IMG/VR virus record: IMGVR_UViG_3300045988_107080
Reading direction: 5' to 3' (one strand)
Length of the DNA stretch: 56,542 bases
Source of the DNA: a virus
Each line of letters begins with the position of its first letter. The first letter of the stretch is position 1. The translations under genes and the position numbers were made by a program. Positions 11,091 to 56,542 of this stretch are shown here, piece after piece. The notes below the pieces were generated by a model. That model was not told the DNA's origin and made no database searches. It was given only the letters and a program-made list of their open reading frames with translations.

Positions 11091-11135
11091 GAGAAGCAGT
11101 AATGGACTTTACTACCATGCTGTTTCTCTTTTATA
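11091..11135 (+). terminator. intrinsic terminator
   Basis: GAGAAGCAG (11091-11099) pairs with CTGTTTCTC (11120-11128) with one G-U, followed by TTTTATATTTTT. Confidence 0.55.
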
Positions 11136-13954: not shown

Positions 13955-13988
13955 TTCGCGTAAAAAACATTCTCCTTTATGAAAGGAG
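13955..13988 (+). promoter_or_regulatory. conserved bipartite promoter-like motif, copy E
   Basis: TTCGCGTAAA-AAACATTCTCCT-TTATGAAAGGAG. The GGAG serves as RBS for the ATG at 13999. Confidence 0.5.
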
Positions 13989-18672: not shown

Positions 18673-18710
18673 AAGCCTTAGTTAAAATATACTAGGGCTT
18701 TTCTCTTTTT
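18673..18710 (+). terminator. intrinsic terminator
   Basis: AAGCCTTAG (18673-18681) pairs with CTAGGGCTT (18692-18700) with one U-G, then TTTCTCTTTTT. Confidence 0.65.
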
Positions 18711-18742
18711 CGCGAAAACGGCATTTCCTATTATGAAAGGAG
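18709..18742 (+). promoter_or_regulatory. conserved bipartite promoter-like motif, copy H
   Basis: TTCGCGAAAA-CGGCATTTCCTA-TTATGAAAGGAG, directly after the terminator at 18673-18710. Confidence 0.5.
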
Positions 18743-18984: not shown

Positions 18985-19014
18985 GACTCAGAAAAATCTG
19001 AGTCTTTTCTTTTT
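18985..19014 (+). terminator. intrinsic terminator
   Basis: GACTCAGA-AAAA-TCTGAGTC perfect 8-bp stem followed by TTTTCTTTTT. Confidence 0.8.
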
Positions 19015-19044
19015 CGCGAAAAATGCATGCTCCTTTATGAAACA
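19013..19044 (+). promoter_or_regulatory. conserved bipartite promoter-like motif, copy I
   Basis: TTCGCGAAAA-ATGCATGCTCCT-TTATGAAACA, directly after the terminator at 18985-19014. Followed by ~200 nt without a credible ORF. Confidence 0.5.
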
Positions 19045-20373: not shown

Positions 20374-20405
20374 TTCGCGAAAAAAACATGGACTTTTATG
20401 AGAGG
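20374..20405 (+). promoter_or_regulatory. conserved bipartite promoter-like motif, copy J
   Basis: TTCGCGAAAA-AAACATGGACTT-TTATGAGAGG. Followed by hairpins, then the gene at 20539. Confidence 0.5.
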
Positions 20406-21360: not shown

Positions 21361-24300
21361 ATGAATCCTGTTGCAGAAGAGATTATGTCATATTTTGGTT
21401 GCAGCTTAGACGATGAAGAATCATTAGAGCATATTGGCATGCCTCGTCGTAGCGGACGATATCCTTGGGGCTCAGGCAAGGACCCTTATCAGCGTAATGC
21501 TGATTTTCTCGCTCGTATCGAGTTACTTAAAAAAGAAGGATGGGAAGAAACACCCGAGAATATCAAGAATGAGTTTGGATTGACCACAACTCAGTATCGT
21601 ACTCAAAAAGGACTGGCTAAAGATGAGCGAAGAATGCTCAAAGTATCTACTGCTAAATCTCTGAAAGAAGATGGTCTTGGTCCTACAGAGATCGCTAGAA
21701 AAATGAGCGAAAGATTTGGCGAAAATATAAACGAGTCAACGGTTCGTTCATTGCTTGATAGCAAATCTGAAAGTAGAATGCTAAAAGCAAAAGAAACCGC
21801 AGATTTTATAAAAAAGAACGTTGACGAAAAGGGAATGATTCTTCTTGGTACTGGCGTAGATGTCGAGCTTAATATTTCTAAAGAAAAACTTAATCAGGCT
21901 CTTGCTCTTCTTGAAGTAGAGGGATATCATGTCCTTGGAGGTCGAGTTCCGCAGGCAAGCAACCCTAGTCAGATGACAACTATAAAAGTTATAGCTCCTC
22001 CTGACACGCCATATAAAATCAACTCTAAAGGCCAAAAAGTTTCTAGCGCCGTTTACGACTATAATAATATTCATACACTTAAGGAATATATTTCTCGTGA
22101 CGGAGGAAACACGTTCGAAAAGAAATTCAACTATCCTGAAAGTATGGACTCAAATCGCCTTATGATTAGATATAAGGAAGACGGAGGAATCGATAAAGAT
22201 GGCATTGTTGAACTTCGTCCAGGAGTAGCAGATTTGTCGCTTGGAGAGTCACGATATTCTCAGGTTCGTATAATGGTTGATGGTAACAAATATATAAAAG
22301 GCATGGCTATTTATGGCGATCCAAAAGATTTTCCTGACGGCGTTGATGTTATTTTTAACACCAACAAATCTAAGAGTGTTCCGAAAATGGATGTTCTTAA
22401 AACTATAAAGGACGATCCCGACAATCCTTTTGGTTCGTTGATAAAAGATGCCGAGCAAGGAGGACAATATTGGTACGATCCTAAAACAGGAAAGCGCGTT
22501 AGCGCAACCGATCCTAATGTTAAAGATAAAAAACTTGGTCTTATAAATAAGAGAGCAGATGAAGGAGATTGGACAGAATGGAAAGATAAACTTCCTTCGC
22601 AGTTTTTATCTAAGCAGTCTGTAGAATTGGCTAAAAAGCAGCTAAATTTGGCTGAAGCAGATAAGGTAGCAGAGTTCGATGAGATTTGTTCATTTCCAAA
22701 TCCTACAGTTAAAAAACATTTGCTAACTAAATTTGCAGATGAATGTGACTCTGCAGCCGTTCATCTTCAGGCAGCTGCTTTGCCTGGTCAGAAATACCAT
22801 GTTATTATTCCAGTTAATACGCTTAAGGACAACGAGATTTATGCTCCTGGATACGAAGATGGAACTAAACTAGCTCTTATAAGATATCCTCATGCAGGCA
22901 CATTCGAAATACCTATACTAAAGGTAAACAATAAAAACGAATTGGCAAGAGATATTATAGGAACATCGTCCATTGACGCGGTTGGAATAAATAAGAATAA
23001 TGCTGATCGTTTGTCCGGAGCAGATTTTGATGGTGACACTGTTATGTGCATACCTACACATGATAGAAAAGGTAAAGTCAGAATCACATCAACAGATGAG
23101 CTTAAAGGATTAAAAGGGTTTGATCCCAAAGATGCTTATGGTCCAGATGAAGTGAAAAAAGATTCAAACGGAAAGCTTCATTATTATAGAAACGGTGTAG
23201 AATATCGTACAATGAGTGAAGCTCATAAGCAGCAGCAAATGGGTGTAGCTTCGAATCTTATTACTGATATGACTTTAAAAGGAGCGACACCAAGCGAAAT
23301 AGAAAGAGCTGTTCGTTATAGCATGGTTGTTATCGATGCTGAAAAACACCATCTTGATTATAAGCAATGCGAACTCGATAATAATATATCTGGCCTAAAA
23401 AAAGATTATCAAAACGGCGGTGCATCTACAATCATATCAAGAAGTAAGAGTATAGAGCCTGTTCCTAAAAGACAGGGAAGCCCTCTTATAAATTATAAAG
23501 ATAAAAAATGGTATGATCCTAGTAAACCAGAAGGTGCACTTATTTGGAAAACGGCAGATGATATATATTATCCAATTAAAAAATACGATAAAAAAAATAA
23601 TGAAATAGTTATTTCTACAGAAGATGGTAAAAAGATCAGGTATAAAGCCGATGATAAAGAAGCAGCTTCAAAATATGAGCCTATAAAAAATGTTGAGCCT
23701 GGAACTGGACGCGTATATTTCACTAACAAATACGGCGATATTGTTTATAAAACAAAGATTCGTACACAAGATAGTACAAAAATGGCAGAAACAAATGATG
23801 CCCGTACTCTTATTTCTGATGCAAATAACCCCATGGAAATGCTATATGCCGACTATGCAAATCATATGAAGTCCCTGGCTAACCAAGCTCGTAAGGAGAC
23901 CATGTCTGCCGGAAAAATTGCATATTCTAAGACGGCTAAGGAAGTATATCGTAAAGAAGTTTCAGACTTAAATATTAAACTCAATGAAGCTTTAAAAAAT
24001 GCTCCTCGTGAAAGGATGGCTAATATTAAGACAGCTGCCGAAATCGACAGAAAAATAAAAAATATAATGGACGCTAATCCTGGTATGACACGAAAAGAGG
24101 CTTCTAAGAAACTCGATATTAAGAAAGCAAATCAGAGAGCGCTAACTAAATATCGTTCAGAACTTGGAGCTGTGGCTAGAAGAGATCGTTCTATAAAAAT
24201 AACTGATCGTGAATGGGAAGCTATACAAGCAGGAGCTGTTAGCGAAACAACGTTAAAGAAAATACTTAACAATACCGATATTGATGATATTAAAGAAAGA

Positions 24301-24450
24301 GCAATGCCTCGTTCTAGAACGACTTTGAGTCCAGCTAAAGTTAATCAGATTAAAGCAATGAGAGATTCCAATTACACAATTGGAGAAATAGCAAAGAAAC
24401 TTGGTGTTTCAACATCAACAGTTTCTGCATATTTGAAAGGAGTGAACTGA
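21361..24450 (+). CDS. candidate single-subunit two-barrel RNA polymerase (YonO / crAss gp66 / RdRP-like) with HTH-like termini
   Basis: LALIRYPHAGTFEIPILKV...LSGADFDGDTVMCIP parallels beta-prime NRAPTLHRLG...NADFDGDQM; ADFDGD is encoded at 23020-23037. N-terminal HTH-like GLGPTEIARKMS..NESTVRSLL and C-terminal YTIGEIAKKLGVSTSTVSAYLKG. No other RNAP subunits are present. Confidence 0.55.
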   Translation: MNPVAEEIMSYFGCSLDDEESLEHIGMPRRSGRYPWGSGKDPYQRNADFLARIELLKKEGWEETPENIKNEFGLTTTQYRTQKGLAKDERRMLKVSTAKSLKEDGLGPTEIARKMSERFGENINESTVRSLLDSKSESRMLKAKETADFIKKNVDEKGMILLGTGVDVELNISKEKLNQALALLEVEGYHVLGGRVPQASNPSQMTTIKVIAPPDTPYKINSKGQKVSSAVYDYNNIHTLKEYISRDGGNTFEKKFNYPESMDSNRLMIRYKEDGGIDKDGIVELRPGVADLSLGESRYSQVRIMVDGNKYIKGMAIYGDPKDFPDGVDVIFNTNKSKSVPKMDVLKTIKDDPDNPFGSLIKDAEQGGQYWYDPKTGKRVSATDPNVKDKKLGLINKRADEGDWTEWKDKLPSQFLSKQSVELAKKQLNLAEADKVAEFDEICSFPNPTVKKHLLTKFADECDSAAVHLQAAALPGQKYHVIIPVNTLKDNEIYAPGYEDGTKLALIRYPHAGTFEIPILKVNNKNELARDIIGTSSIDAVGINKNNADRLSGADFDGDTVMCIPTHDRKGKVRITSTDELKGLKGFDPKDAYGPDEVKKDSNGKLHYYRNGVEYRTMSEAHKQQQMGVASNLITDMTLKGATPSEIERAVRYSMVVIDAEKHHLDYKQCELDNNISGLKKDYQNGGASTIISRSKSIEPVPKRQGSPLINYKDKKWYDPSKPEGALIWKTADDIYYPIKKYDKKNNEIVISTEDGKKIRYKADDKEAASKYEPIKNVEPGTGRVYFTNKYGDIVYKTKIRTQDSTKMAETNDARTLISDANNPMEMLYADYANHMKSLANQARKETMSAGKIAYSKTAKEVYRKEVSDLNIKLNEALKNAPRERMANIKTAAEIDRKIKNIMDANPGMTRKEASKKLDIKKANQRALTKYRSELGAVARRDRSIKITDREWEAIQAGAVSETTLKKILNNTDIDDIKERAMPRSRTTLSPAKVNQIKAMRDSNYTIGEIAKKLGVSTSTVSAYLKGVN

Positions 24451-24704
24451 TGATGGAAAGTAAGTTTATGCTGACAACAGTCGATAATCCTTTTAATCCA
24501 TTCGAACAGTTTGCTTCTTGGCTTATGTTCGACATTGGTAAAGGTTATAACTCTTGTGCATACTTAGCTAGAATAGCAAATCCTACAGATGATATGTCTG
24601 ATCAAGAAATCGATGCTGAAATTGAACGAGCAATCGATGAAATCATCAAATATGATTTTCTTGGTATTTACAAGAAAATAAAAAGAAATAACACCGATAC
24701 ATAA
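24450..24704 (+). CDS. hypothetical conserved phage protein
   Basis: TGATG coupling to the upstream gene. TTVDNPFNPFEQFASWLMFD is a pattern I recall from other Firmicutes phages; function unknown. Confidence 0.5.
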   Translation: MMESKFMLTTVDNPFNPFEQFASWLMFDIGKGYNSCAYLARIANPTDDMSDQEIDAEIERAIDEIIKYDFLGIYKKIKRNNTDT

Positions 24705-24711
24705 AAGGATA

Positions 24712-24739
24712 GGGGGGGGGTCGCTAAAATTGCACCCCC
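24712..24739 (+). terminator. G9...C5 hairpin at the end of the early/middle region
   Basis: The G9 run (24712-24720) can pair with CCCCC (24735-24739) across a 14-nt loop. There is no clear T-tail, so terminator function is uncertain. Confidence 0.3.
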
Positions 24740-24790
24740 TCTTCGCATCGCCGGCCTCCTCAAAAATTCTCCGGGGGTAATTTTTATATT

Positions 24791-24816
24791 TTCAAGACCA
24801 TGTTTAAAAGAGTTCA
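24791..24816. repeat. inverted repeat, left arm (26 nt)
   Basis: TTCAAGACCATGTTTAAAAGAGTTCA. Reverse complement of 24961-24986 except for 2 adjacent positions. Confidence 0.9.
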
Positions 24817-24960
24817 CACTGGAACTGAAAGCCAGTGGCAGGGTAGAGAAGCTAAGGAGTTCTCGTTATATTCTACCTTCATCTTTCAGAATCACCTCTT
24901 CTTTAATTGTTTGCTTTCTCCTTTCTTAAAAAGTACATACAATCTTCTTATAACTCCTTA

Positions 24961-24986
24961 TGAACTCTTTTAAATGTGGTCTTGAA
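24961..24986. repeat. inverted repeat, right arm (26 nt)
   Basis: TGAACTCTTTTAAATGTGGTCTTGAA. Confidence 0.9.
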
Positions 24987-25070
24987 GTGATTCTTTTATA
25001 TTTGAAACAAGCTGGAAAGTTAGCAAAAAGTATTACTACATAATAATTATCAAAGGAGGTTAATTATTAA

Positions 25071-25386
25071 ATGCGTGTTCTTAAATTCAATGTAACCGGC
25101 CAAATTCTTAAAGCCGACAACAAGTGCGACTTTGATAATATTGTTGCAGGAAGTAAAAATTATCTGATTGCAGATTTTACATTCGATGACGAATGGAGCA
25201 AGTATAAAAAAAGTTGCTGTCTTTATAAATGGCAAAATTGAATACCCAGTTTTAATAGAAGAAAACAAATGTATTATCGATAATAACGCTCTTACTTCTG
25301 GGTGGTTTTATGTCTATGTTGTTGGGCAGCTACAAAACGAAAGAATAAACACAAATTCGGTTGGAGTAAGGCAGGTGCTTAGATAA
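25071..25386 (+). CDS. tail-fibre-module protein interrupted by a +1 frame change at an A7 run
   Basis: Frame 0 (25071-25241) reads MRVLKFNVTGQ...DFTFDDEWSKYKK and then ends after 9 more codons. The +1 frame continues VAVFINGKIEYPVLIEENK...VRQVLR to 25386. The switch point is the A7 run at 25206-25212. The joined 104-aa product reads as one domain. Confidence 0.55.
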
Positions 25387-27047
25387 TGCCAACAGTTGAT
25401 GAATTACTTAATGCTTCAAATGAAGTAACAACCTGTACAATTAATCCTGATACTCGCGAAATAATTGTTCCGGAAAAGTATAAAATTTTAGGAGTATTCT
25501 CTGACGAGAAAGTAACAAAGATTCCTTTTACTTGTCCGAGAGTTGTCGGAAATAATGTTGATCTCACAGAGTATAATCTTTATATAAATTATCAAAACGC
25601 AAGTGGCGCGAGTAATGCTTACTTAATAGACGATCTTGTTGTATCAGGAGACAACATTACATTTTCATGGTTGCTTTCAAGATATGTTACGTTTTCGCAA
25701 GGAGTTGTTAAATATAGTTTCTGTGCAAAGAAATTAGATGGCGATACGATTTCTAACGAATGGAATACAACCATTGCAACGGGCTTAGTTATTCAAGGTC
25801 TGGAAGCAACGCGAGAAATCATAGAAGAGAATCCAGACATAATTGAATCACTTATTTCCAAAGCACATACGCATGAAAACAAGTCGGTTCTTGACAAGTT
25901 TTCTGAAACCGACGGAAAGCCGACCTATAACGGCATAGCCATTGGTAGCGGTGGTACTGGTGGGGCATCAACCGCCGAAGACGTCAATTATACCAACACG
26001 CAGTTGCCGAACGTCGACAATGTCAAAGGCGCACTCGACGAGCTTATCCCTAAATCCCACACGCACGACAACAAGTGGGTGCTTGATAAGTTTGATGAAT
26101 TTTTTGGTAAGCCAATCTATGACGGCAAGGTTTTAGGCGAAGGTGTTTTTATAATTAAGGCAACTGCTAGTATGAACGACGACGGAACATATGAAGTAAT
26201 CAATCCCACATCAACTTTAGCAGAAATTGAAGCAGCCGTTGAAGACGGAAAAGTTCCGATTGCCTTGGTAGAAATTTCGCGAACATCCACTGTTATTTTA
26301 CAGTTGAAAAGCTGTGGGGAAGGAACCTGTATCTTCAGCACTATGTTGTACGGTACTGAGGCTCAGTTACATGTTGTGCAAGAAGATCAAGAAAGATGGT
26401 ACTTTATAATGAGTAGCCAACCGATAAGTGCAGAGAACGTTACCTATTATGATAAATCGGTAGAAGGCGCACTCGACGAGCTCGTTCCCAAATCCCACAC
26501 GCACGCTAACAAAGGCACACTCGACAAGCTCTCCGACTCAAACGGAAAGCTCCAATATAACGGCTCTGATGTCGGCTTAAAGGGCGATAAGGGAGACCCT
26601 GGCTCGGATGCAAATGTGACAAAAGACAATGTTATAACTGCACTCGGCTATACGCCGGAAGCGGTATCGGCACAGGTCTCCACAGGCTCAAACGTAACCC
26701 TTGCCGATAACACCGAGTACCGCCTCACCGATGTCACGACATTGACACTGACATATCCTACAGGCAACTTCGAGTGTTGGATGCGCTTAACCTTCGCGGC
26801 AAGCGGAAATATTACCGTTACTTTACCAACTGGCACAGAATATCTTGGTCCGACTCCTAATTTCAAAAATGGTGAGACGTGGGAACTCAGTTTTAAGGAC
26901 AAGGTTCTAGTTGCTCAGAAGGTTGGCGACAGCGGGGCAATTAGTGCCCCTGTCAAAGGCGTAGACTATTGGACGGAGCAAGATAAGCAGGAGATTGTTA
27001 ATGACGTCATAGCTGCCCTGCCCGATGGCACGGAGGTGAGTTACTGA
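25386..27047 (+). CDS. tail fibre protein with three HxH-type repeats
   Basis: TAATG coupling. The N-terminus resembles baseplate/fibre anchor domains. Three repeats: KAHTHENKSVLDKFSETDGKPTYNG, KSHTHDNKWVLDKFDEFFGKPIYDG and KSHTHANKGTLDKLSDSNGKLQYNG. Confidence 0.6.
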   Translation: MPTVDELLNASNEVTTCTINPDTREIIVPEKYKILGVFSDEKVTKIPFTCPRVVGNNVDLTEYNLYINYQNASGASNAYLIDDLVVSGDNITFSWLLSRYVTFSQGVVKYSFCAKKLDGDTISNEWNTTIATGLVIQGLEATREIIEENPDIIESLISKAHTHENKSVLDKFSETDGKPTYNGIAIGSGGTGGASTAEDVNYTNTQLPNVDNVKGALDELIPKSHTHDNKWVLDKFDEFFGKPIYDGKVLGEGVFIIKATASMNDDGTYEVINPTSTLAEIEAAVEDGKVPIALVEISRTSTVILQLKSCGEGTCIFSTMLYGTEAQLHVVQEDQERWYFIMSSQPISAENVTYYDKSVEGALDELVPKSHTHANKGTLDKLSDSNGKLQYNGSDVGLKGDKGDPGSDANVTKDNVITALGYTPEAVSAQVSTGSNVTLADNTEYRLTDVTTLTLTYPTGNFECWMRLTFAASGNITVTLPTGTEYLGPTPNFKNGETWELSFKDKVLVAQKVGDSGAISAPVKGVDYWTEQDKQEIVNDVIAALPDGTEVSY

Positions 27048-29035
27048 TGGCGAAGAAGCTATATGAAGAATCGTTAATTCAGGATATTGCTAACGCCATT
27101 CGTGAGAAAAATGGCGAGACAACCACCTACAAAATTGGAGAGATGGGAGCAGCAATAAAGGCTCTCTCGGGAGAAACAGAGACTTATACATTTAGTCAAG
27201 AACGCACAGAAGTCAGTAAGTTTTTAAGAGAAGTTACTTATAACCCTGCTGATTATACAATATCATCAATACCCAACTATGTCACTACCACTTCCTCTAA
27301 TCATCCCGAAGGTGTTTCTATTCAAATAAAAAAAGCAGGTAGTTTAGTTATAACTGATGGTAATACAAATAATACCATTACAAAAGCCGTTCAAGCCGGG
27401 GCAATTAAAATTTACAATTTGACCCCGAATATAATTTCTACCTTTTTTGTAATTGACTCTAATAACAAAATAATCCAACAAGGCACCATTAAGCCGACAG
27501 GAACTTGCCGCATGATCTATATGACAAATGTTGATAACGTACGCGATATTGGCGGATGGTCTTGTGATGGTGGCACAATAAAATATGGTAAGCTTTTTCG
27601 TGGCGGAGATGTTTATGGAGTTTTAACCGAGGATGGAGCTACACAGGCTCTTGATATGCTTGGAATTGAAAAAGAGATAGATTTAAGATTTGACTCAGAT
27701 TTAAATGGTAGAACTGAAAGTGGTTTTGGCAACTCTGTGGATATGCTTCATGTTGATATGACATGGAATGACTTAAATTACCAGAAAAATAGTGGCAATA
27801 TCAAAAAGATATTTGACCAATTATTTGACTATGTAATTGCGGGACATCCTACATACTTCCATTGTTCTGCTGGAGCTGATAGAACTGGAGTTGTTGCTCT
27901 TCTTTGTGAAGCGGTACTTGGTATGTCACAGTCAGATATGGATAAAGAATATGAGCTAACTTGCTTTTATTCCGGCGTGGAAAATGATAGTCAAGCCCGC
28001 CGAAGAAATGAGGCTATATGGACGAGAGAAATAAATATTATTAACTCTTATTCAGGAGCCACTTTTAGAGACAAAGCAGTTAATTATATGGTGTCATGCG
28101 GCATTACAATCGAGAAAATTAATGCTTTTAGAGCAGCAATGATTAACGGCACACCAGATATCCTAACAGCAGATATTAATACCTATACGGTAACAAAGAC
28201 ATTAACCAATATAACAACGGACAATAATGCAACGTCTGCGAAACAATATCAGCCATATATAGCGAAAATACTACCTGACGATGGGAAGATAATCGAAAAT
28301 GTTAAAGTAACAATGGGCGGAACAGATATTACCAGCGCGGTATTTGATGGTAATGTGACCGTACTAAGACGAGTAATAACAAAAAATCTTACACAATGTA
28401 CAAGTAGTAATACACGCACATATGCAATTAGTGGGCAGTCTTATGTAACAAATTTAACCGCCAATGAGGGGTATGACATTGATAGTGTAAGTATAACAAT
28501 GGGAGGTGTGGATGTGTCCACATTTTATAAAGACGGGATTGTTTCTATCCCAGAAGTAACAGGAGATATTGTAATAACAGCAACTGCAATTACACAAGGT
28601 CCCGCCTATACGAATCAGATTCCAATTAGTACGGATTCCACTGGCGCGATTTATAATAATATTGGATATAAAGATGGGTATCAAATAAGTGACAGTGGTG
28701 TTGATGAGGAACTGGGTCATAAATCTGTTACAGGGTTTATACCGATTAAGAAGGGCGATACAATTCGCATAAAAGGAGTCTACAACAATGATGTAACTTC
28801 ATGCCGAATGTGCGCTTATAATAGTTCTAAAGCTTTTGAAACGGCACGAAATGGAACAATATTTGCCTCAACTGGAGTCTATTCTTTATCAGGAGATGTA
28901 ATGACATATACTCCTAACGAGTATTTCGTGACTGATACCACTCGTTATTTTCGCTTTTCTTGTGACACCGGTGCGCACACAGGGGAAGAAGATGGCTCAA
29001 AGTTAATTATTACTATAAACGAAGAAATCGTCTAA
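27047..29035 (+). CDS. fibre-cluster protein with embedded protein-tyrosine-phosphatase-like (CX5R) domain and C-terminal Ig-like/binding domains
   Basis: NVRDIGGW...KLFRGGD...GIEKEIDLRFDSD...YFHCSAGADRTG (HCSAGADRTG is encoded at 27860-27889) matches the Y_phosphatase3-type P-loop. Two repeats of the form VxxTMGGxDxxS follow. Confidence 0.65.
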   Translation: MAKKLYEESLIQDIANAIREKNGETTTYKIGEMGAAIKALSGETETYTFSQERTEVSKFLREVTYNPADYTISSIPNYVTTTSSNHPEGVSIQIKKAGSLVITDGNTNNTITKAVQAGAIKIYNLTPNIISTFFVIDSNNKIIQQGTIKPTGTCRMIYMTNVDNVRDIGGWSCDGGTIKYGKLFRGGDVYGVLTEDGATQALDMLGIEKEIDLRFDSDLNGRTESGFGNSVDMLHVDMTWNDLNYQKNSGNIKKIFDQLFDYVIAGHPTYFHCSAGADRTGVVALLCEAVLGMSQSDMDKEYELTCFYSGVENDSQARRRNEAIWTREINIINSYSGATFRDKAVNYMVSCGITIEKINAFRAAMINGTPDILTADINTYTVTKTLTNITTDNNATSAKQYQPYIAKILPDDGKIIENVKVTMGGTDITSAVFDGNVTVLRRVITKNLTQCTSSNTRTYAISGQSYVTNLTANEGYDIDSVSITMGGVDVSTFYKDGIVSIPEVTGDIVITATAITQGPAYTNQIPISTDSTGAIYNNIGYKDGYQISDSGVDEELGHKSVTGFIPIKKGDTIRIKGVYNNDVTSCRMCAYNSSKAFETARNGTIFASTGVYSLSGDVMTYTPNEYFVTDTTRYFRFSCDTGAHTGEEDGSKLIITINEEIV

Positions 29036-31721: not shown

Positions 31722-32135
31722 ATGGATAATAATGAACTCTATCATTATGGCGTCCTCGGTATGAAGTGGGGTGTAAGACGATCGCCATCTCAGCTCGGTC
31801 ATAAAATCAGAATAAAAAGGAAGAAGAAACCTTCTGAACCGATTCATGAAGATTATAAGAAAGCTCATAGTAAAAAGAGCGTTTCAAGTATGAGCGATGC
31901 TGAACTTCGAAACCGCAATAATCGTCTTCAAATGGAAAGACAATATGCTCAATTAACTAAAAAGAATAGCAAAGGAAAGAAAATAGTGTCCGGTCTTATA
32001 GCCACAGCAGGAACAATTGCTGCAGCAGAAGGAGCCTATAAAACTTATAAAAGAGTTGGTAATCAAATTTTAGACAAGCTTGGCGATTATGCTGTTCGCG
32101 ATATTATGCGCAAAAACATAGGGCGTGCACTATAA
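31722..32135 (+). CDS. GMKWGxRR-motif protein, paralog 1
   Basis: N-terminus is MDNNELYHYGVLGMKWGVRR. The remainder is basic. Confidence 0.55.
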   Translation: MDNNELYHYGVLGMKWGVRRSPSQLGHKIRIKRKKKPSEPIHEDYKKAHSKKSVSSMSDAELRNRNNRLQMERQYAQLTKKNSKGKKIVSGLIATAGTIAAAEGAYKTYKRVGNQILDKLGDYAVRDIMRKNIGRAL

Positions 32136-32151
32136 AAGGAGGCGTCGAGAT

Positions 32152-33897
32152 ATGGCATTATCAAACACAGCCGTTCCAAAGTATTACGGTCAGTTTCGTG
32201 ATGCCGTAATCAGAGGCGAAATACCTGTATGTAAAGAAATCTCTATGGAGATGAACCGAATAGACGACCTTATTGCTAATCCTGCTGTCTATTACGATGA
32301 TCAGGCTGTTGAAGGTTTTATCGATTATTGTGAGAGTGAATTAACTCTAACTGACGGTGAAGATTTGAATCTACTGGATTCATTCAAACTGTGGGCAGAG
32401 GAGATATTCGGTTGGTATTACTTTGTTGAAAGAAGCGTGTATGAACCGTCTCCAGATGGTCATGGTGGACATTATGTTACAAAGTCGATAAAGAAGAGAC
32501 TGATAAACAAACAGTATTTGATCGTGGCCAGAGGTGCGGCGAAATCAATGTATGGCTCTTGCATTCAGAACTTCTTTTTGAACGTCGATACTTCTACAAC
32601 TCACCAAATTACTACGGCTCCTACAATGAAGCAAGCAGAAGAAGTTATGTCGCCAATTCGAACCGCTATAACAAGAGCTAGAGGGCCTCTTTATAAATTC
32701 CTTACTGATGGTTCTTTGCAGAATACTACAGGTTCAAAAGCGAATCGTGTGAAACTGGCATCTACTAAAAAGGGTGTCGAAAATTTCTTAACAGGTTCTT
32801 TACTTGAGATTAGACCTATGAGTATTGATAAGCTCCAGGGTCTTAGATGTAAGATTGCTACTGTTGATGAATGGCTGTCCGGAGACATAAGAGAAGATGT
32901 CATAGGTGCAATAGAGCAGGGCGCTTCTAAGAACGATGATTATCTCATCGTTGCTATAAGCTCAGAAGGTACGGTACGTAATGGAAGCGGCGATACAATC
33001 AAAATGGAGTTAATGGACATCCTTAAGGGCGAGTATATAAATCCACATGTTTCGATTTGGTGGTACAAGCTCGATTCTATCGACGAGGTTGCGCATCCTG
33101 AGATGTGGTTAAAAGCTAATCCGAATCTCGGTAAGACGGTTACCTATGAGACGTATCAGTTAGACGTTGATAGAGCCGAGAATGCACCAGCGACTAGAAA
33201 TGAAATTTTGGCTAAGCGTTTCGGCATACCTATGGAGGGTTATACATATTACTTTACTTATGAAGAAACCCTTCCTCATCGTAAAAGAGACTTTTGGAGA
33301 ATGCCGTGCTCGATGGGAGCGGATCTTTCACAGGGAGATGACTTCTGTGCGTTTACATTTATGTTCCCGCTTGCTAGAGGTGAGTTTGGTGTTAAGACTC
33401 GAAACTATATAACCGAATTAACCCTCATGAAACTTCCGTCTGCTATGAGAAGCAAGTACGACGAGTTTATAAAAGAGGGCAGCTTGATAGTCATGCCGGG
33501 AACTATTCTGGACATGATGCAGGTTTACGAAGATTTGGATAATCATATAGCTCAGTGTGAGTATGATGTACGCTGCTTTGGATTCGACCCATATAATGCG
33601 AGGGAATTCGTAGAGAGATGGGAACGAGAAAACGGACCGTTTGGTATTGAGAAAGTTATACAGGGAGCTAAGACAGAGTCGGTTCCTTTGGGTGAACTTA
33701 AGAAGCTTGCCGAAGAAAGAATGCTTTTGTTCGATGAGGAGCTTATGACTTTTGCGATGGGTAACTGCATTACTCTTGAAGATACCAATGGAAATAGAAA
33801 ACTTTTAAAGAAGCGATATGATCAGAAGATAGATGCTGTTGCAGCTATGATGGATGCTTTTATCGCTTATAAGATTAACAGCGAAGCATTTGAGTAA
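32152..33897 (+). CDS. terL: terminase large subunit
   Basis: Start at the ATG after AAAAGGAGG. Walker A-like VARGAAKS, Walker B ATVDEW, C-terminal nuclease-like region. Size and position are typical. Confidence 0.8.
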   Translation: MALSNTAVPKYYGQFRDAVIRGEIPVCKEISMEMNRIDDLIANPAVYYDDQAVEGFIDYCESELTLTDGEDLNLLDSFKLWAEEIFGWYYFVERSVYEPSPDGHGGHYVTKSIKKRLINKQYLIVARGAAKSMYGSCIQNFFLNVDTSTTHQITTAPTMKQAEEVMSPIRTAITRARGPLYKFLTDGSLQNTTGSKANRVKLASTKKGVENFLTGSLLEIRPMSIDKLQGLRCKIATVDEWLSGDIREDVIGAIEQGASKNDDYLIVAISSEGTVRNGSGDTIKMELMDILKGEYINPHVSIWWYKLDSIDEVAHPEMWLKANPNLGKTVTYETYQLDVDRAENAPATRNEILAKRFGIPMEGYTYYFTYEETLPHRKRDFWRMPCSMGADLSQGDDFCAFTFMFPLARGEFGVKTRNYITELTLMKLPSAMRSKYDEFIKEGSLIVMPGTILDMMQVYEDLDNHIAQCEYDVRCFGFDPYNAREFVERWERENGPFGIEKVIQGAKTESVPLGELKKLAEERMLLFDEELMTFAMGNCITLEDTNGNRKLLKKRYDQKIDAVAAMMDAFIAYKINSEAFE

Positions 33898-33910: not shown

Positions 33911-34510
33911 ATGTGGAAATACAATTATACGCCTAGTACCTACGAGCTTTGCCACCACGGTATTAAAGGTATGAAGTGGGGCGTTAGACGTTATCAGAAT
34001 GCTGACGGTTCACTTACTGATGCTGGTAAGAAGAAATATGGTAAAATGTCTAATGATAAATTATCTAAGACGTTGAAGAAACAAGTGCAAAAGAAAAGAG
34101 CAGAAATTCATGGTGGAGCAAATCGTTGGATGAGTTATGGCGATATCGGAGAAAATTCGAAAAAAGCCATTAAAAAGTTTAGAGAAGACCATAATAAGTA
34201 TAGAAACTCTGATGCTTATAAAAAAGCAGAAAAACAATTTATAGAATTAGACAAAAAGCTCGAAGCTGGAAAAATTGACATTGAAAAGTACGATGCCGAG
34301 TCCAAAAAGATACATGAATCAATATACAATCCTAAATTTGATACAAGTATAACGTATACTGACAAAGGTCGTAAATACGCAAAAGAATATGTAAACGGTT
34401 ATGGTAAAGACATAACTGTCGGTTATCTACAGGATTTAGGGTATAATAAACAAGTATCTGAAGAGTTTGCAAAACGTATAATCAAATCAAATAGAAAAAC
34501 GATATTCTAA
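33911..34510 (+). CDS. GMKWGxRR-motif protein, paralog 2
   Basis: MWKYNYTPSTYELCHHGIKGMKWGVRR, Lys-rich. Start at the ATG after AAGGGAGG. Confidence 0.55.
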   Translation: MWKYNYTPSTYELCHHGIKGMKWGVRRYQNADGSLTDAGKKKYGKMSNDKLSKTLKKQVQKKRAEIHGGANRWMSYGDIGENSKKAIKKFREDHNKYRNSDAYKKAEKQFIELDKKLEAGKIDIEKYDAESKKIHESIYNPKFDTSITYTDKGRKYAKEYVNGYGKDITVGYLQDLGYNKQVSEEFAKRIIKSNRKTIF

Positions 34511-34842: not shown

Positions 34843-35406
34843 GTGTGGGAATATAATTATACACCGAGTCCCGACGAACTTTATCATTATGGTGTTCCAG
34901 GAATGAAGTGGGGACGAAGAAAAGCTAGAAGATTTGAAGCAAGGGCAACTAGAAGATTACAAAAAGCTGGACAAATTTATGGACGATCTGAGTACTATAG
35001 AGCCAAAGGTAAAAAAGCTGCTCGACAGCATAATGAAGTGGCAAACGCTTTTAATAAACAAGCAAAAACATATGATGCTCAGGGAAAGGCTTTAAAAGCA
35101 GAAGCAGCACGAAGAGCAGCATCGGCAATAAAGGCAAGAGGTGCCAACGTTCAAGCTCAGAACGATTCCGTAGCTAACAGCTATGAGAAGAGAGCAAATA
35201 AAAAAAGCGAAAAAGCTAAAGCATATGCCACAAAAAAGCATCTTAATATGGGCACAAAAGCAGTAAACAAGATTATATCTGGTTCAAAGCAAAAAGGTTA
35301 CGATAAAGCTAAACGCCGTGATGACAATATTAGAGAGGCTAAACTTAATGATATGCTTGGCGATGGTAATTATAATACTCTTAATAAAATTCGCGGACGA
35401 AGATAA
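34843..35406 (+). CDS. GMKWGxRR-motif protein, paralog 3
   Basis: GTG start after AAGGAGG. MWEYNYTPSPDELYHYGVPGMKWGRRK, followed by an Ala/Lys/Arg-rich helical tail. Confidence 0.55.
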   Translation: MWEYNYTPSPDELYHYGVPGMKWGRRKARRFEARATRRLQKAGQIYGRSEYYRAKGKKAARQHNEVANAFNKQAKTYDAQGKALKAEAARRAASAIKARGANVQAQNDSVANSYEKRANKKSEKAKAYATKKHLNMGTKAVNKIISGSKQKGYDKAKRRDDNIREAKLNDMLGDGNYNTLNKIRGRR

Positions 35407-35444: not shown

Positions 35445-36821
35445 ATGGAGCAAACACTTGGATCTAGGCTGAGACATGCCTGGAATGCTTTTCGGAGTCG
35501 AGCTCCCACGGAAGAATTTAGAGATGTTGGGCAAGGATATTACTATCGTCCAGATAGAGTAAGGCTCACTAGAGGAAACGAGCGTTCTATTGTCACGTCC
35601 ATTTATAATAGAATTGCAATTGACGTTGCATCTGTGGATATTAAACATTGCCGTCTGGATGATAATGGCCGATTCATATCAGAAATAGATTCTGGTCTTA
35701 ATTCTTGCTTGACACTTGAAGCAAATCTCGACCAGACAGCGAGAGCGTTTAAACAGGATATTGTCATGTCTATGTTCGACGAAGGTTGTGTGGCAATAGT
35801 TCCGGTTGACACGACCCTCGATCCAAATAAAACCAGCTCATATGATATTTTGACAATGAGAACTGGTAAGATTCTTGAATGGTATCCGCAGCATGTAAAA
35901 GTAAGAGTTTACAATGAGAAGACTGGAAAGAAAGAAGATATAAAAGTTCCAAAAAGTACAGTCGGCATAATTGAGAATCCTCTCTACGCAATAATTAATG
36001 AGCCGAACTCAACCATGCAGCGTCTCATAAGAAAACTTAGTTTGCTGGATATTACAGATGAACAAACTGCTTCAGGTAAACTGGACTTAATAATTCAGTT
36101 GCCTTATGTAATAAAAACAGAAGCAAGACGTCAGCAAGCTGAAAATAGGCGAAAAGACATCGAAATGCAGTTAGCAAGTTCTAAGTATGGTATAGCTTAT
36201 ACCGATGGTACTGAGCGTATCACACAGTTGAATCGTTCTGTCGAGAACAATCTGTTGAAGCAGATCGAATCTCTAACGAGTACGCTATACAGCCAGTTAG
36301 GAATCACTCAGGCTATCTTAGATGGAACGGCAGACGAAAAGACAATGCTCAACTACAATAATCGAACGATTGAGCCAATTGTGTCAGCTATAGTTGACGA
36401 AATGAAACGAAAGTTTCTAACCAAAACTGCTCGGTCACAAAAGCAGTCAATCTTGTCATTTAGAGACCCGTTTAAACTTGTTCCAGTAAACAACATCGCT
36501 GATATTGCAGATAAGTTTACTAGAAATGAGGTTCTCACTTCGAACGAGATTAGGCAAATTATTGGATTTAAACCTTCTGATGATCCAAAGGCTGATGAGC
36601 TTATCAATAGCAATATATCTCAGCCGAATCAGGGAATGGAGATGCCATACGAAGATCCTTATGCTGAGGAACCTTATGCTGAGGAACCTTATGCTGAGGA
36701 ACCATATGCTGAGGAACCATATGGCGATGAAGTTCCTTATGAAGAAGAGTCAGAAGATTCAATTCCATTAGGTCAAAGACCGTACAGTGAAATTGCTAAA
36801 AAATTCAATGAAGGAGGATAA
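35445..36821 (+). CDS. portal protein
   Basis: 458 aa, lying between the terminase and the protease-capsid gene. Acidic repetitive C-terminus. Confidence 0.65.
   Translation: MEQTLGSRLRHAWNAFRSRAPTEEFRDVGQGYYYRPDRVRLTRGNERSIVTSIYNRIAIDVASVDIKHCRLDDNGRFISEIDSGLNSCLTLEANLDQTARAFKQDIVMSMFDEGCVAIVPVDTTLDPNKTSSYDILTMRTGKILEWYPQHVKVRVYNEKTGKKEDIKVPKSTVGIIENPLYAIINEPNSTMQRLIRKLSLLDITDEQTASGKLDLIIQLPYVIKTEARRQQAENRRKDIEMQLASSKYGIAYTDGTERITQLNRSVENNLLKQIESLTSTLYSQLGITQAILDGTADEKTMLNYNNRTIEPIVSAIVDEMKRKFLTKTARSQKQSILSFRDPFKLVPVNNIADIADKFTRNEVLTSNEIRQIIGFKPSDDPKADELINSNISQPNQGMEMPYEDPYAEEPYAEEPYAEEPYAEEPYGDEVPYEEESEDSIPLGQRPYSEIAKKFNEGG
36657..36731 (+). repeat. 15-bp tandem repeat x5 (CCTTATGCTGAGGAA) inside the portal gene
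   Basis: Three identical units, one with a single change, and one degenerate. Encodes PYAEE x4 followed by PYGDE. Confidence 0.9.
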
Positions 36822-36828
36822 AATCAAA

Positions 36829-38574
36829 ATGGAAAGATTTGATTTTAGCGGATGGGCTACCAAAGCTAATCTCAAATGCTCTGATGGCAGAACCATCATG
36901 AAAGATGCATTTAAGCATAATGATGGACAGACTGTTCCTCTTGTATGGAACCATCAGCACAACGATCCGAATGAAGTTCTAGGTCATGCTCTTCTTGAGA
37001 ACCGAGACGAAGGCGTTTATGCCTATTGCACCTTCAACGATACTGAATCCGGAAAGACTGCAAAGCTGCTTGTTCAGCATGGAGATGTTAATGCACTCTC
37101 TATCTATGCAAACCAGCTTAAACAGAAGATGTCCAATGTGCTGCATGGAAACATTCGTGAAGTTAGTCTGGTTCTTGCTGGAGCTAATCCTGGAGCTTCT
37201 ATCGATTCTATCATTATGCATGGTGAAGAGTCGGACGAAGAAGCAATTATTTATACCGGAGAAGAGATTACTCTTGCTCATTCAAGCGACGCTAAAGATA
37301 GCAAAGGAACTACAAAGGAGGATAATAAAATGGCAGACGATATTAAGAAGACAGACGGTGAAGAGACCGTTGCTGATGTATTTAATACTCTCAGCGAAAA
37401 GCAGAAGACTGTGGTCTATGCGATGATTGGTCAGGCACTCGAAGATGCCGGTGTGACCGATGACGATGATGAAGATTATGAAGACGAAATGGGACATTCG
37501 GAAGGAGACGATTACATGAAAAGAAACGTATTTGACAACGATGAGCAGCAGGAAGATGTTCTTTCTCATGCTGCAATGGAAACAATTATTGGTGATGCTA
37601 AGCGCTTCGGCAGCCTGAAGGAGAGCTTCCTTGCACATGCCGATGAGTACGGTATCGAGCAGATCGACTATCTGTTCCCCGAGGCGAAGACACTCAACAA
37701 TCCGCCTGAGTTCATTAAGAGAGACACTGGCTGGGTTAGCACAGTTATGGGTGCTGTCCATCACACTCCGTTCTCTCGTATTAAGTCGGTATTTGCAAAT
37801 ATAACCGAGGATGAGGCTCGTGCAAAGGGTTATATTAAGGGTAACCTTAAGAAGGAGGAGGTCTTCTCGCTGCTTAAGAGAACTACTACTCCTACTACGA
37901 TTTACAAAAAGCAGAAGCTTGATCGTGACGACGTCATTGACATCACCGATTTCGATGTTGTTGCTTGGCTGAAGTCTGAGATGCGTATTATGCTTGACGA
38001 GGAAATTGCTCGTGCGATCCTTATCGGTGACGGTCGCCTTTCTTCTAGCGATGACAAGATCAACGAGTCCAACATTCGTCCTGTCGTTTCCGATGCTGAG
38101 CTTTATACCATCCGTCAGAAGGTTAGCGTTGCTACTAATGCTACTGATGACGATAAGGCCAAGGCTATGATTAAGGCTGCTGTTAAGGCTCGTAAGAACT
38201 ATAAGGGTTCTGGTAATCCTACTTTCTTCACTACTGAAGATTGGCTGACTAATGCACTTCTTCTTGAGGACGCTCAGGGCCATCGTCTGTACAAGAATGA
38301 TAGTGAAGTTGCTGCTGCTATGCGTGTCAGCAAGATCGTTACTGTTCCGGTTATGGAAGGCGTTAAGGGCCCCGAGGGTGGCGATCTGATCGGTATCATC
38401 GTTAACCTTGCAGACTATAATGTTGGTGCTGATAAGGGCGGTGCCGTCAACATGTTTGACGACTTCGACATCGATTACAACCAGCAGAAGTACCTGATTG
38501 AGACTCGTTGCTCTGGCGCGCTCATTAAGCCTTACTCCGCTATTGAGCTTGAGCTTGATGTCGCTGCTGGTTAA
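36829..38574 (+). CDS. prohead serine protease (HK97/S78-like) fused to the major capsid protein
   Basis: N-terminus FSGWATKAN...VPLVWNHQHNDPNEVLGHA...ALSIYA...IREVSLVLAGANPGASI matches the S78 protease pattern. An acidic linker follows, then a ~330-aa HK97-fold-like capsid region. Confidence 0.7.
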   Translation: MERFDFSGWATKANLKCSDGRTIMKDAFKHNDGQTVPLVWNHQHNDPNEVLGHALLENRDEGVYAYCTFNDTESGKTAKLLVQHGDVNALSIYANQLKQKMSNVLHGNIREVSLVLAGANPGASIDSIIMHGEESDEEAIIYTGEEITLAHSSDAKDSKGTTKEDNKMADDIKKTDGEETVADVFNTLSEKQKTVVYAMIGQALEDAGVTDDDDEDYEDEMGHSEGDDYMKRNVFDNDEQQEDVLSHAAMETIIGDAKRFGSLKESFLAHADEYGIEQIDYLFPEAKTLNNPPEFIKRDTGWVSTVMGAVHHTPFSRIKSVFANITEDEARAKGYIKGNLKKEEVFSLLKRTTTPTTIYKKQKLDRDDVIDITDFDVVAWLKSEMRIMLDEEIARAILIGDGRLSSSDDKINESNIRPVVSDAELYTIRQKVSVATNATDDDKAKAMIKAAVKARKNYKGSGNPTFFTTEDWLTNALLLEDAQGHRLYKNDSEVAAAMRVSKIVTVPVMEGVKGPEGGDLIGIIVNLADYNVGADKGGAVNMFDDFDIDYNQQKYLIETRCSGALIKPYSAIELELDVAAG

Positions 38575-56457: not shown

Positions 56458-56542
56458 ATTTTTTTTTCAAATTCTCCATAAAATTCGCGAAAATTACATT
56501 CCATATTATGAAGAGAAAGTTAGGATGAAACCGGAACGGTCG
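56458..56542. repeat. terminal redundancy copy 2 (identical to 1-85)
   Basis: Same 85 nt as positions 1-85. Consistent with circular assembly overlap or a short direct terminal repeat. Confidence 0.95.
56484..56515 (+). promoter_or_regulatory. conserved bipartite promoter-like motif (duplicate of copy A inside the terminal redundancy)
   Basis: Identical to 27-58. Confidence 0.5.

Follow-up and report, generated by a model that had tools for sequence, protein, structure and literature searches.

In this work we examine a short N-terminal motif of the RNA polymerase (RNAP) encoded at 21361..24450 (+ strand) in the viral DNA of IMG/VR record IMGVR_UViG_3300045988_107080, hereafter the window (the whole 56,542-nt stretch analysed), and its relationship to DUF7211 (PF23847), a 25-position Pfam family catalogued without a function or a link to polymerases. 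The motif, LEHIGMPRRSGRYPWGSG, lies at 21424..21477 (+ strand) and covers residues 22-39 counted from the ATG at 21361. Comparison of the two families indicates that the first half of the polymerase motif is related to DUF7211 and that the relationship plausibly extends throughout; the polymerase segment falls below the Pfam gathering cutoff and is not assigned as a DUF7211 member. The function we favour, which in our judgement has about equal chances of proving right or wrong, is that of a shared virion-incorporation tag, of which the polymerase would carry a diverged copy and by means of which it would be delivered with the DNA.

Relationship between the polymerase motif and DUF7211

The three small basic proteins to which a preliminary description of the window, made from the sequence alone, had likened the polymerase N-terminus are true Pfam DUF7211 members (gathering cutoff 27 bits), and the motif that it had described for these 'paralogs' is not new, being a family already in Pfam. 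They are a 137-aa protein with an isoelectric point (pI) of 10.3 at 31722..32135 (Pfam E 3.1e-11, 42.9 bits), a 199-aa protein of pI 9.7 at 33911..34510 (E 5.9e-10, 38.8 bits) and a 187-aa protein of pI 10.4 at 34843..35406 (E 5.3e-11, 42.2 bits), all on the + strand, in which the motif reads ELYHYGVLGMKWGVRR (31734..31781, +), ELCHHGIKGMKWGVRR (33944..33991, +) and ELYHYGVPGMKWGRRK (34876..34923, +), respectively. The translations previously quoted for 21424-21477 and for the starts of these three proteins were recovered exactly. Across phages the DUF7211 consensus occupies ~17-20 residues, [DE][DE]-L-x-H-[YH]-G-[VI]-[KPL]-G-[MQ]-[KR]-W-G-[VR]-R-[RK], and the first half of the polymerase motif follows D/E-x-L-x-H-Y-G-[MVI]-[PK].

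Key to relating the two is a comparison of whole families, for which we used 152 unique DUF7211 motifs and 108 unique polymerase N-terminal motifs drawn from the window, 216 database proteins and 87 related loci. hhalign aligned the two sets with a probability of 92.9% (P=3.7e-7) over 11 columns, D-E-L-x-H-Y-G-V-K-G, which in pattern form correspond to (D/E)(D/E)-L-x-H-Y-G-[VIM]-[KP]-x, and the 800 column-permuted controls all stayed below the observed score of 25.1 (maximum 19.8, median 7.3). The curated Pfam model, which is independent of the motif extraction made here, was the sole match among 24,736 Pfam models for the polymerase N-terminal peptides of 5 of 10 relatives, at profile positions 5-14. 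An alternation of K and P at the same position and an acidic lead-in are common to both families. In actinophages the two motifs are near-identical: ReqiPepy6 has DDFLAHYGVKGMKWG compared with DDYLAHYGILRRSGRYPWG in its polymerase (DDFLAHYGVKGMKWGV in eight proteins, DDYLAHYGILRRSGRYPWGSG in the polymerase), and SheRa has DDVLAHYGIKGMKWG in DUF7211 compared with EEALAHYGVLRRSGRYPWG and EEALAHYGVLRRSGRYPWGSG in its polymerase. Co-variation between polymerase and DUF7211 of the residue x in L-x-H, seen in actinophages and in Lactococcus phage 1706 (A/A, Q/Q), was considered separately and rejected, as it fails across 80 gut-phage loci.

Within the window alone, the by-eye alignment is suggestive and not significant. 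The loose pattern [LIMVF]xHxG-x(2-10)-WG, selected post hoc after viewing the data, matches exactly four places among 850 six-frame segments, namely the polymerase and the three small proteins, with a mean of 0.06 and a maximum of 2 matches in residue-shuffled segments (2000 shuffles). When a hidden Markov model (HMM) of the polymerase motif was run over the same 850 segments, its best non-self match was the 34843 protein (E 0.099), followed by the 31722 protein (E 0.37), both at the motif; HMMs built narrowly from close gut-phage relatives gave cross-search scores of 4-9 bits, too weak to count alone. The similarity put forward in the preliminary description is thus statistically significant between families and not for the window polymerase by itself, and the common pattern it had proposed holds at the family level for the first half, while the second half needs an insertion. 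The polymerase loop before W-G is longer, reading RRSGRYP where DUF7211 has GMK, and its length differs within the polymerase family, e.g. YLAHVGKPHEGSKPHSGRYPWG. Placing 3+1 additional residues in the polymerase gives the top score among 126 four-residue deletions, with a gain of only ~5 bits, and no bridging polymerase with a canonical GMKWG was found among 120 listed homologues, 80 loci and the 150 best DUF7211 representatives.

Several of these comparisons count against a relationship. The window polymerase is the weakest DUF7211 match in its family, with no DUF7211 match at E<=1 in a Pfam search and 1.0 bit against the DUF7211 motif HMM built here, mainly because it has H-I-G in place of the H-Y-G found in nearly all homologues. 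The five matching peptides of its relatives score 13-20 bits (E 4e-4 to 0.07), below the cutoff of 27, and none of the precomputed Pfam lists for polymerase homologues includes PF23847. The G-[MR]-[KY]-(P)-W-G half aligns only with the 3+1 residue loop insertion, the RSGRYPWGSG half of the polymerase being otherwise without a DUF7211 counterpart, and as the polymerases have one common ancestor the match counts as a single evolutionary event. A likeness that is convergent or fortuitous, with the polymerase motif a family-specific element such as part of the N-terminal DNA-binding region, would account for these points. We regard this as quite improbable: it has to contend with the hhalign significance and the failure of every permuted control, with the return of a single family from the whole of Pfam, and with the K/P alternation and acidic lead-in shared by two families that occur in the same genomes, and the predicted structure places the segment outside the folded helix-turn-helix (HTH) region and core.

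The polymerase motif is among the best-conserved segments of the protein. The conserved block around it is wider, at 21409..21492 (D17-Q44), with H24, G26, R29, S31, G32, R33, G37, S38, G39, P42, Y43 and Q44 invariant across 54 homologues, and the motif is mostly invariant from Firmicutes phages to actinophages. In the AlphaFold model, residues 15-46 have a predicted local distance difference test (pLDDT) value of <50 and no secondary structure. Linear motifs that fold onto a partner typically combine strong conservation with the lack of an intrinsic fold, and the segment shows this combination, being predicted to be disordered ahead of the folded bodies.

A portable module around the terminase and portal genes

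As a portable module, DUF7211 is attached to otherwise unrelated proteins. In the small proteins the motif is the sole conserved element, and a motif-only profile retrieved 38,419 representative proteins among 1.84 billion, many with 2-5 copies. Fusions combine it with a 2H phosphoesterase (ReqiPepy6 gp013, Kerry gp12 and Secretariat gp12), place a GNAT domain between two copies (Bilo gp6 and Secretariat gp15, the latter with a sub-threshold match to a papain-fold glutamine deamidase, 23.7 bits against a cutoff of 24.1), or set it between DUF5662 and DUF6883. Fusions of DUF5662, DUF7211 and DUF6883 (or another C-terminal domain) were observed 7-8 kb upstream of the polymerase gene in the related loci L031 (1421-2371), L032 (2445-3470) and L067 (2354-3334), that is, in the early/replication region, so that not all DUF7211 genes adjoin the genes for the large terminase (TerL) and portal.

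In general, each relative examined encodes 1-8 motif proteins, clustered near TerL and portal on the same strand; at least one is encoded in 28 of the 29 loci with at least 9 kb of sequence downstream of the polymerase gene, again all on the same strand. The three small basic proteins of the window are encoded among the TerL, portal and protease-capsid genes, as the preliminary description had stated, and the connector gene. The first lies directly 5' of TerL (32125..33897, +) and overlaps it, the second between TerL and the portal gene (35445..36821, +; phrog_12, E 8.6e-46), and the third just 5' of the portal gene, followed by a fusion of prohead protease (S78) and major capsid protein (36787..38574, +; phrog_3270, E 2.6e-238, and phrog_7080). 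Relatives share this layout, with DUF7211 genes flanking a TerL_nuclease gene and with Peptidase_S78 and Phage_capsid likewise present. DUF7211 genes also flank TerL and portal in 41-kb phages, which possess a polymerase homologue, and in a 95-kb contig, for which the absence of a polymerase homologue applies within the fetched locus only.

A DUF7211 protein occupies the same pre-TerL position in SheRa (gp6), Bilo (gp6), Kerry (gp12), ReqiPepy6 (gp013) and 1706 (orf7). The proteins at this position (31722-32135 in the window, P0079, P0044, ReqiPepy6 gp013 and Bilo gp6) were further observed to share a C-terminal module conserved as LSNxELxxxxxRMxLExxY. After it comes a hydrophobic glycine-rich stretch, seen near the C-terminus in the window protein, which may be a membrane-active segment of an ejected protein. 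The position of the 31722 protein beside TerL also raised the possibility of a small terminase (TerS). This was rejected as a general explanation because copies also occur after TerL and portal, 1706 orf7 is annotated as structural and orthologues carry enzyme domains; such a role could still hold for the 31722 protein alone.

Predicted structure gives the motif a similar setting in the small proteins. The AlphaFold (AF2) model of the 34843 protein, whose homologues all contain PF23847 (96 of 96), is a three-helix bundle with pLDDT >90, in which residues 1-18 have pLDDT <50 and the first confident structure is a helix from residue 26. A Foldseek search with the small-protein model returned generic helical bundles and a P092 relative only.

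The N-terminal position emphasized in the preliminary description applies to all four window proteins, and the motif starts within the first 40 residues of the reading-frame segment in 59 of 67 cases; elsewhere it may be internal, duplicated or, in polyproteins, present in 3-5 copies spaced 150-370 aa apart, every unit opening with the motif. Its frequent internal or repeated placement fits a processing site or module boundary equally well. On such a reading the prohead protease would recognize or cleave the motif, or the motif would mark a boundary between modules, with polyproteins and fusions cut beside each copy and the polymerase N-terminus trimmed likewise. The polyproteins, the placement of the motif between domains (DUF5662-motif-DUF6883, 2H phosphoesterase-motif-C-terminal module and motif-GNAT-motif-C-terminal module) and the fusion of an S78 protease to the capsid protein in all these phages speak for it. 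We nonetheless consider it rather unlikely, as the motif is much longer and more conserved than typical phage protease sites, an invariant 17-residue block across two phyla would be needless for a bare cleavage site, and a cut adjacent to a motif that mostly lies at the extreme N-terminus would free only a few residues. Cleavage and targeting could also go together: in T4 the prohead protease cuts off the targeting peptide.

Polymerase homologues occur in 250 of 50,697 phage genome records and DUF7211 in 244 of them, with ~3.8 motif sites per genome. The co-occurrence of motif and polymerase in related phages that the preliminary description had proposed looking for is thus close, and the counts by genus are identical for the two families (Arthrobacter 95/95, Gordonia 55/55, Streptomyces 54/54, Curtobacterium 7/7, Microbacterium 4/4 and Faecalibacterium 2/2).

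Virion location and early transcription

As judged from sequence and modelled structure, the polymerase itself is a genuine two-barrel RNAP homologue belonging to the '1706 family' of YonO-like proteins. It is a single chain of 1029 aa and 115.5 kDa, of the YonO/QDE-1-like, 1706-orf75 type, and ATG 21361 is taken as its real start because a GAGGAG ribosome-binding site lies upstream and homologues are also 1029 aa long. Its parts run in the order N-terminal motif, HTH region, catalytic core and C-terminal HTH, the C-terminal HTH domains having been found by Pfam search. The earlier label of RNAP candidate has proved sound: the protein matches phrog_4291 ('RNA-dependent RNA polymerase') at E=0, its catalytic DFDGD loop (D555-D559; 23023..23037, +) lies inside a GADFDGDT segment invariant in every homologue aligned, and the peptide pattern GADFDGD retrieved 506 related loci. 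A Foldseek search with its AF2 model (mean pLDDT 75, predicted template modelling score 0.63) gave QDE-1 7y7s as the top match in the Protein Data Bank (E 5.9e-4, probability 0.99), followed by plant RDR2 7w82 (E 1.8e-3) and then by Pol II Rpb1 chains. No Pfam RdRP match was obtained for the window polymerase at E<=1; an HHpred match of the family to PF05183 (P=95.7%) has been reported (bioRxiv 10.1101/842583), and the 1706 protein is one of five YonO-like families according to Ruprich-Robert and Thuriaux (PMC2919709).

A virion location is suggested indirectly by the GenBank annotation of Lactococcus phage 1706, in which both the polymerase homologue (orf75) and orf7, a protein with two DUF7211 motifs encoded directly upstream of TerL, are annotated as 'structural protein'. 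The same label is given to orf62 and orf71, which lie among non-structural genes, implying that these labels reflect experimental detection and not gene position. The structural proteins of 1706 are said to have been found by mass spectrometry by Garneau and colleagues in 2008. In addition, the GNAT, 2H phosphoesterase and possibly toxin-like fusions in the head module resemble capsid protein-delivery systems such as the cargo of the T4 capsid-targeting sequence (CTS) and MuF-type toxins. In the literature we found nothing connecting the DUF7211/GMKWG motif, the polymerase (YonO-like, 1706) and the virion.

The preliminary description had invoked early units driven by a sequence motif. A 28-bp motif, TTCGCGAAAA-N3-CAT-N6-TTATGA, is present on the + strand alone, in 8 distinct copies where 0.05 would be expected, all of them within 27-20,401 (27-54, 179-206, 1280-1307, 2334-2361, 13955-13982, 18709-18736, 19013-19040 and 20374-20401); a further occurrence at 56484-56511 is a repeat of the copy at 27-54. 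The exact core recurs in 45 of 91 related loci, where it generally precedes the polymerase gene by 0.9-1 kb. The spacing of the motif, TTCGCG-14 nt-TATTAT, is unlike that of a sigma-70 promoter, which makes it a candidate for an early promoter specific to the phage. Were the phage polymerase to read these sites, the enzyme would have to be there ahead of all phage gene expression, following the logic of N4 and crAss-like phages.

Combining these lines, we infer a route in which the motif, predicted to be disordered on its own, would dock onto a conserved surface inside the assembling procapsid. That surface could belong to the portal, a candidate binding partner, or to the protease-capsid fusion through its protease-scaffold part, the fusion being a candidate binding partner or processing enzyme. 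Every motif carrier, the polymerase included, would thereby be loaded into the head and leave it along with the DNA. Once injected, the polymerase would drive early gene transcription from the phage-specific 28-bp promoter-like motif, in the manner of the N4 and crAss-like virion polymerases. Four tandem EEPYA repeats were observed at 36640-36760, in the acidic C-terminus of the portal, and are lineage-specific; they were rejected as a docking partner, since the portals of 1706, FP_oengus, SheRa, ReqiPepy6 and Kerry lack them.

Incorporation into the virion has several points against it. The structural calls for 1706 come from the GenBank record alone, and the co-occurrence of polymerase and DUF7211 is confounded by common descent, all carriers belonging to one supercluster. 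It might be the host polymerase, aided by a phage factor, that reads the 28-bp motif, and a 115-kDa protein would need to pass down the long tail of a siphovirus on its way out. By analogy with the related YonO of SPbeta, which is made in the cell and transcribes late genes (PMC5467207), synthesis of the polymerase could simply follow infection.

This last possibility can be widened to one in which the motif would be a protein-protein interaction module outside the virion, joining the polymerase and the small proteins in a transcription or replication complex or binding a host factor, with the polymerase made after infection like T7 RNAP and YonO. Consistent with it, the small proteins, as very basic helical bundles, might bind nucleic acid, the early/replication block ends with the polymerase gene, and polymerase and DUF7211 strictly co-occur. 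We think it unlikely, however, because DUF7211 genes lie among connector, TerL, portal and capsid genes in every lineage examined, orf7 and orf75 of 1706 are annotated as structural, the GNAT, phosphoesterase and possibly toxin-like fusions suit delivered effectors better than transcription factors, and the promoter-like motif is confined to the early region and absent from the late one, the opposite of the YonO pattern.

A wider form of the virion-incorporation reading, which we advance tentatively and hold to be somewhat likelier wrong than right, is that DUF7211 serves as a general portable cargo-loading peptide of a very large siphophage supercluster. It would dock its carriers inside the HK97-type head for co-injection of a self-sufficient polymerase, with its own HTH domains for promoter recognition, and of a changing set of effectors comprising acetyltransferases, 2H phosphoesterases and possibly toxin-like deamidases.

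Genome context and comparison with known systems

The window is the whole genome of a 1706/FP_oengus-like siphophage. Its long open reading frames are exclusively on the + strand, and positions 1-~85 are identical to 56458-56542; because the first ~85 bases recur at the end, we take it as a circular or terminally redundant assembly of a complete genome of ~56.5 kb. Its kin are Faecalibacterium phage FP_oengus, Lactococcus phage 1706 and large clusters of Arthrobacter, Gordonia, Streptomyces, Curtobacterium, Microbacterium and Rhodococcus phages, which have been described as a supercluster (bioRxiv 10.1101/842583). Among related loci L008-L087, 36 of 75 IMG/VR contigs terminate <600 bp past the polymerase reading frame, and in actinophage records the polymerase gene is the rightmost large gene, which places the physical genome end (cos) just downstream of it; a 680-bp non-coding gap at 24704-25386 is likely the window equivalent of this cos region.

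Two further features of the window were observed. A 662-aa protein encoded at 27047-29035 (+), in a fibre-like block between the polymerase and an HNH gene, contains a Y_phosphatase3 domain (E 1.2e-23) with the sequence HCSAGADRTG. Furthermore, the element CTTTTATATTT is repeated at 11128, 14316, 18141, 19233 and 24993 (+), directly 3' of GC-rich hairpin-like sequences and just 5' of ribosome-binding sites, and may be a terminator or transcription-unit junction of the early/middle region.

A variety of known systems load proteins by means of a short conserved element. Encapsulin cargo-loading peptides are usually C-terminal and load enzymes inside an HK97-fold shell, and MuF is a folded domain of ~100 residues found in head-delivered MuF-type toxins or 'polyvalent proteins' with variable effector domains. 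DUF7211 resembles both in combining a short conserved peptide or module with diverse enzymes, and differs from them in sequence and position. In T4, the CTS is a short peptide common to IPI-III and Alt that directs them into the prohead, and enzyme or anti-defence cargo is ejected with the DNA (reviewed in PMC3012670 and PMC9026906). DUF7211 is likewise a short peptide common to otherwise unrelated proteins, although the CTS measures ~10 residues, is strictly N-terminal and is removed at LxE by gp21, whereas DUF7211 measures ~17-20 residues and may be internal or repeated. The two have no sequence similarity. As for the Pfam family itself, the small proteins are true members and the polymerase motif, with its longer loop, stays below the cutoff.

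For the polymerase, the closest functional precedents are N4 gp50 and gp66 of the crAss-like phage phi14:2, large single-chain virion RNAPs injected for early transcription, of which the crAss enzyme is a two-barrel protein (DxDGD). To our knowledge, virion RNAPs have been described from N4-like, crAss-like and jumbo phages and none from ordinary siphoviruses of Firmicutes and Actinobacteria, and we know of no targeting peptide shared with other cargo in N4 or crAss-like phages. Those phages are podoviruses of Gram-negative or Bacteroidota hosts, whereas the window phage is a long-tailed siphovirus of Firmicutes or Actinobacteria, in whose family packaging is deduced solely from the annotation of phage 1706. 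A motif link to the crAss and YonO polymerases has been noted (bioRxiv 10.1101/842583). YonO, too, is a single-chain two-barrel RNAP whose loop reads DxDGD, and a tblastn search at E<=1e-5 did not recover it; only the 1706-like family has the N-terminal motif and the HTH domains that flank it. Capsid-targeting peptides and virion polymerases are known kinds, and what our hypothesis adds is a different motif, a Gram-positive siphovirus setting and one tag for both the polymerase and effectors.

If the wider, cargo-loading reading of DUF7211 is correct, long-tailed phages of Gram-positive bacteria would for the first time offer a case in which an injected polymerase performs early transcription, together with a ready-made tag for loading proteins into such capsids. 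Virion incorporation through DUF7211, if it holds, would also give a function to DUF7211 and to many 'hypothetical proteins' encoded between terminase and portal, together with a 20-residue handle for finding which phage proteins enter cells. The group concerned is abundant and spans Clostridia phages of the human gut, lactococcal phages of the dairy and hundreds of Arthrobacter, Gordonia and Streptomyces phages from SEA-PHAGES. Such phages would open infection with their own injected polymerase and a cocktail of injected enzymes, and the early gene regulation and anti-defence strategies of the whole group would then read differently.

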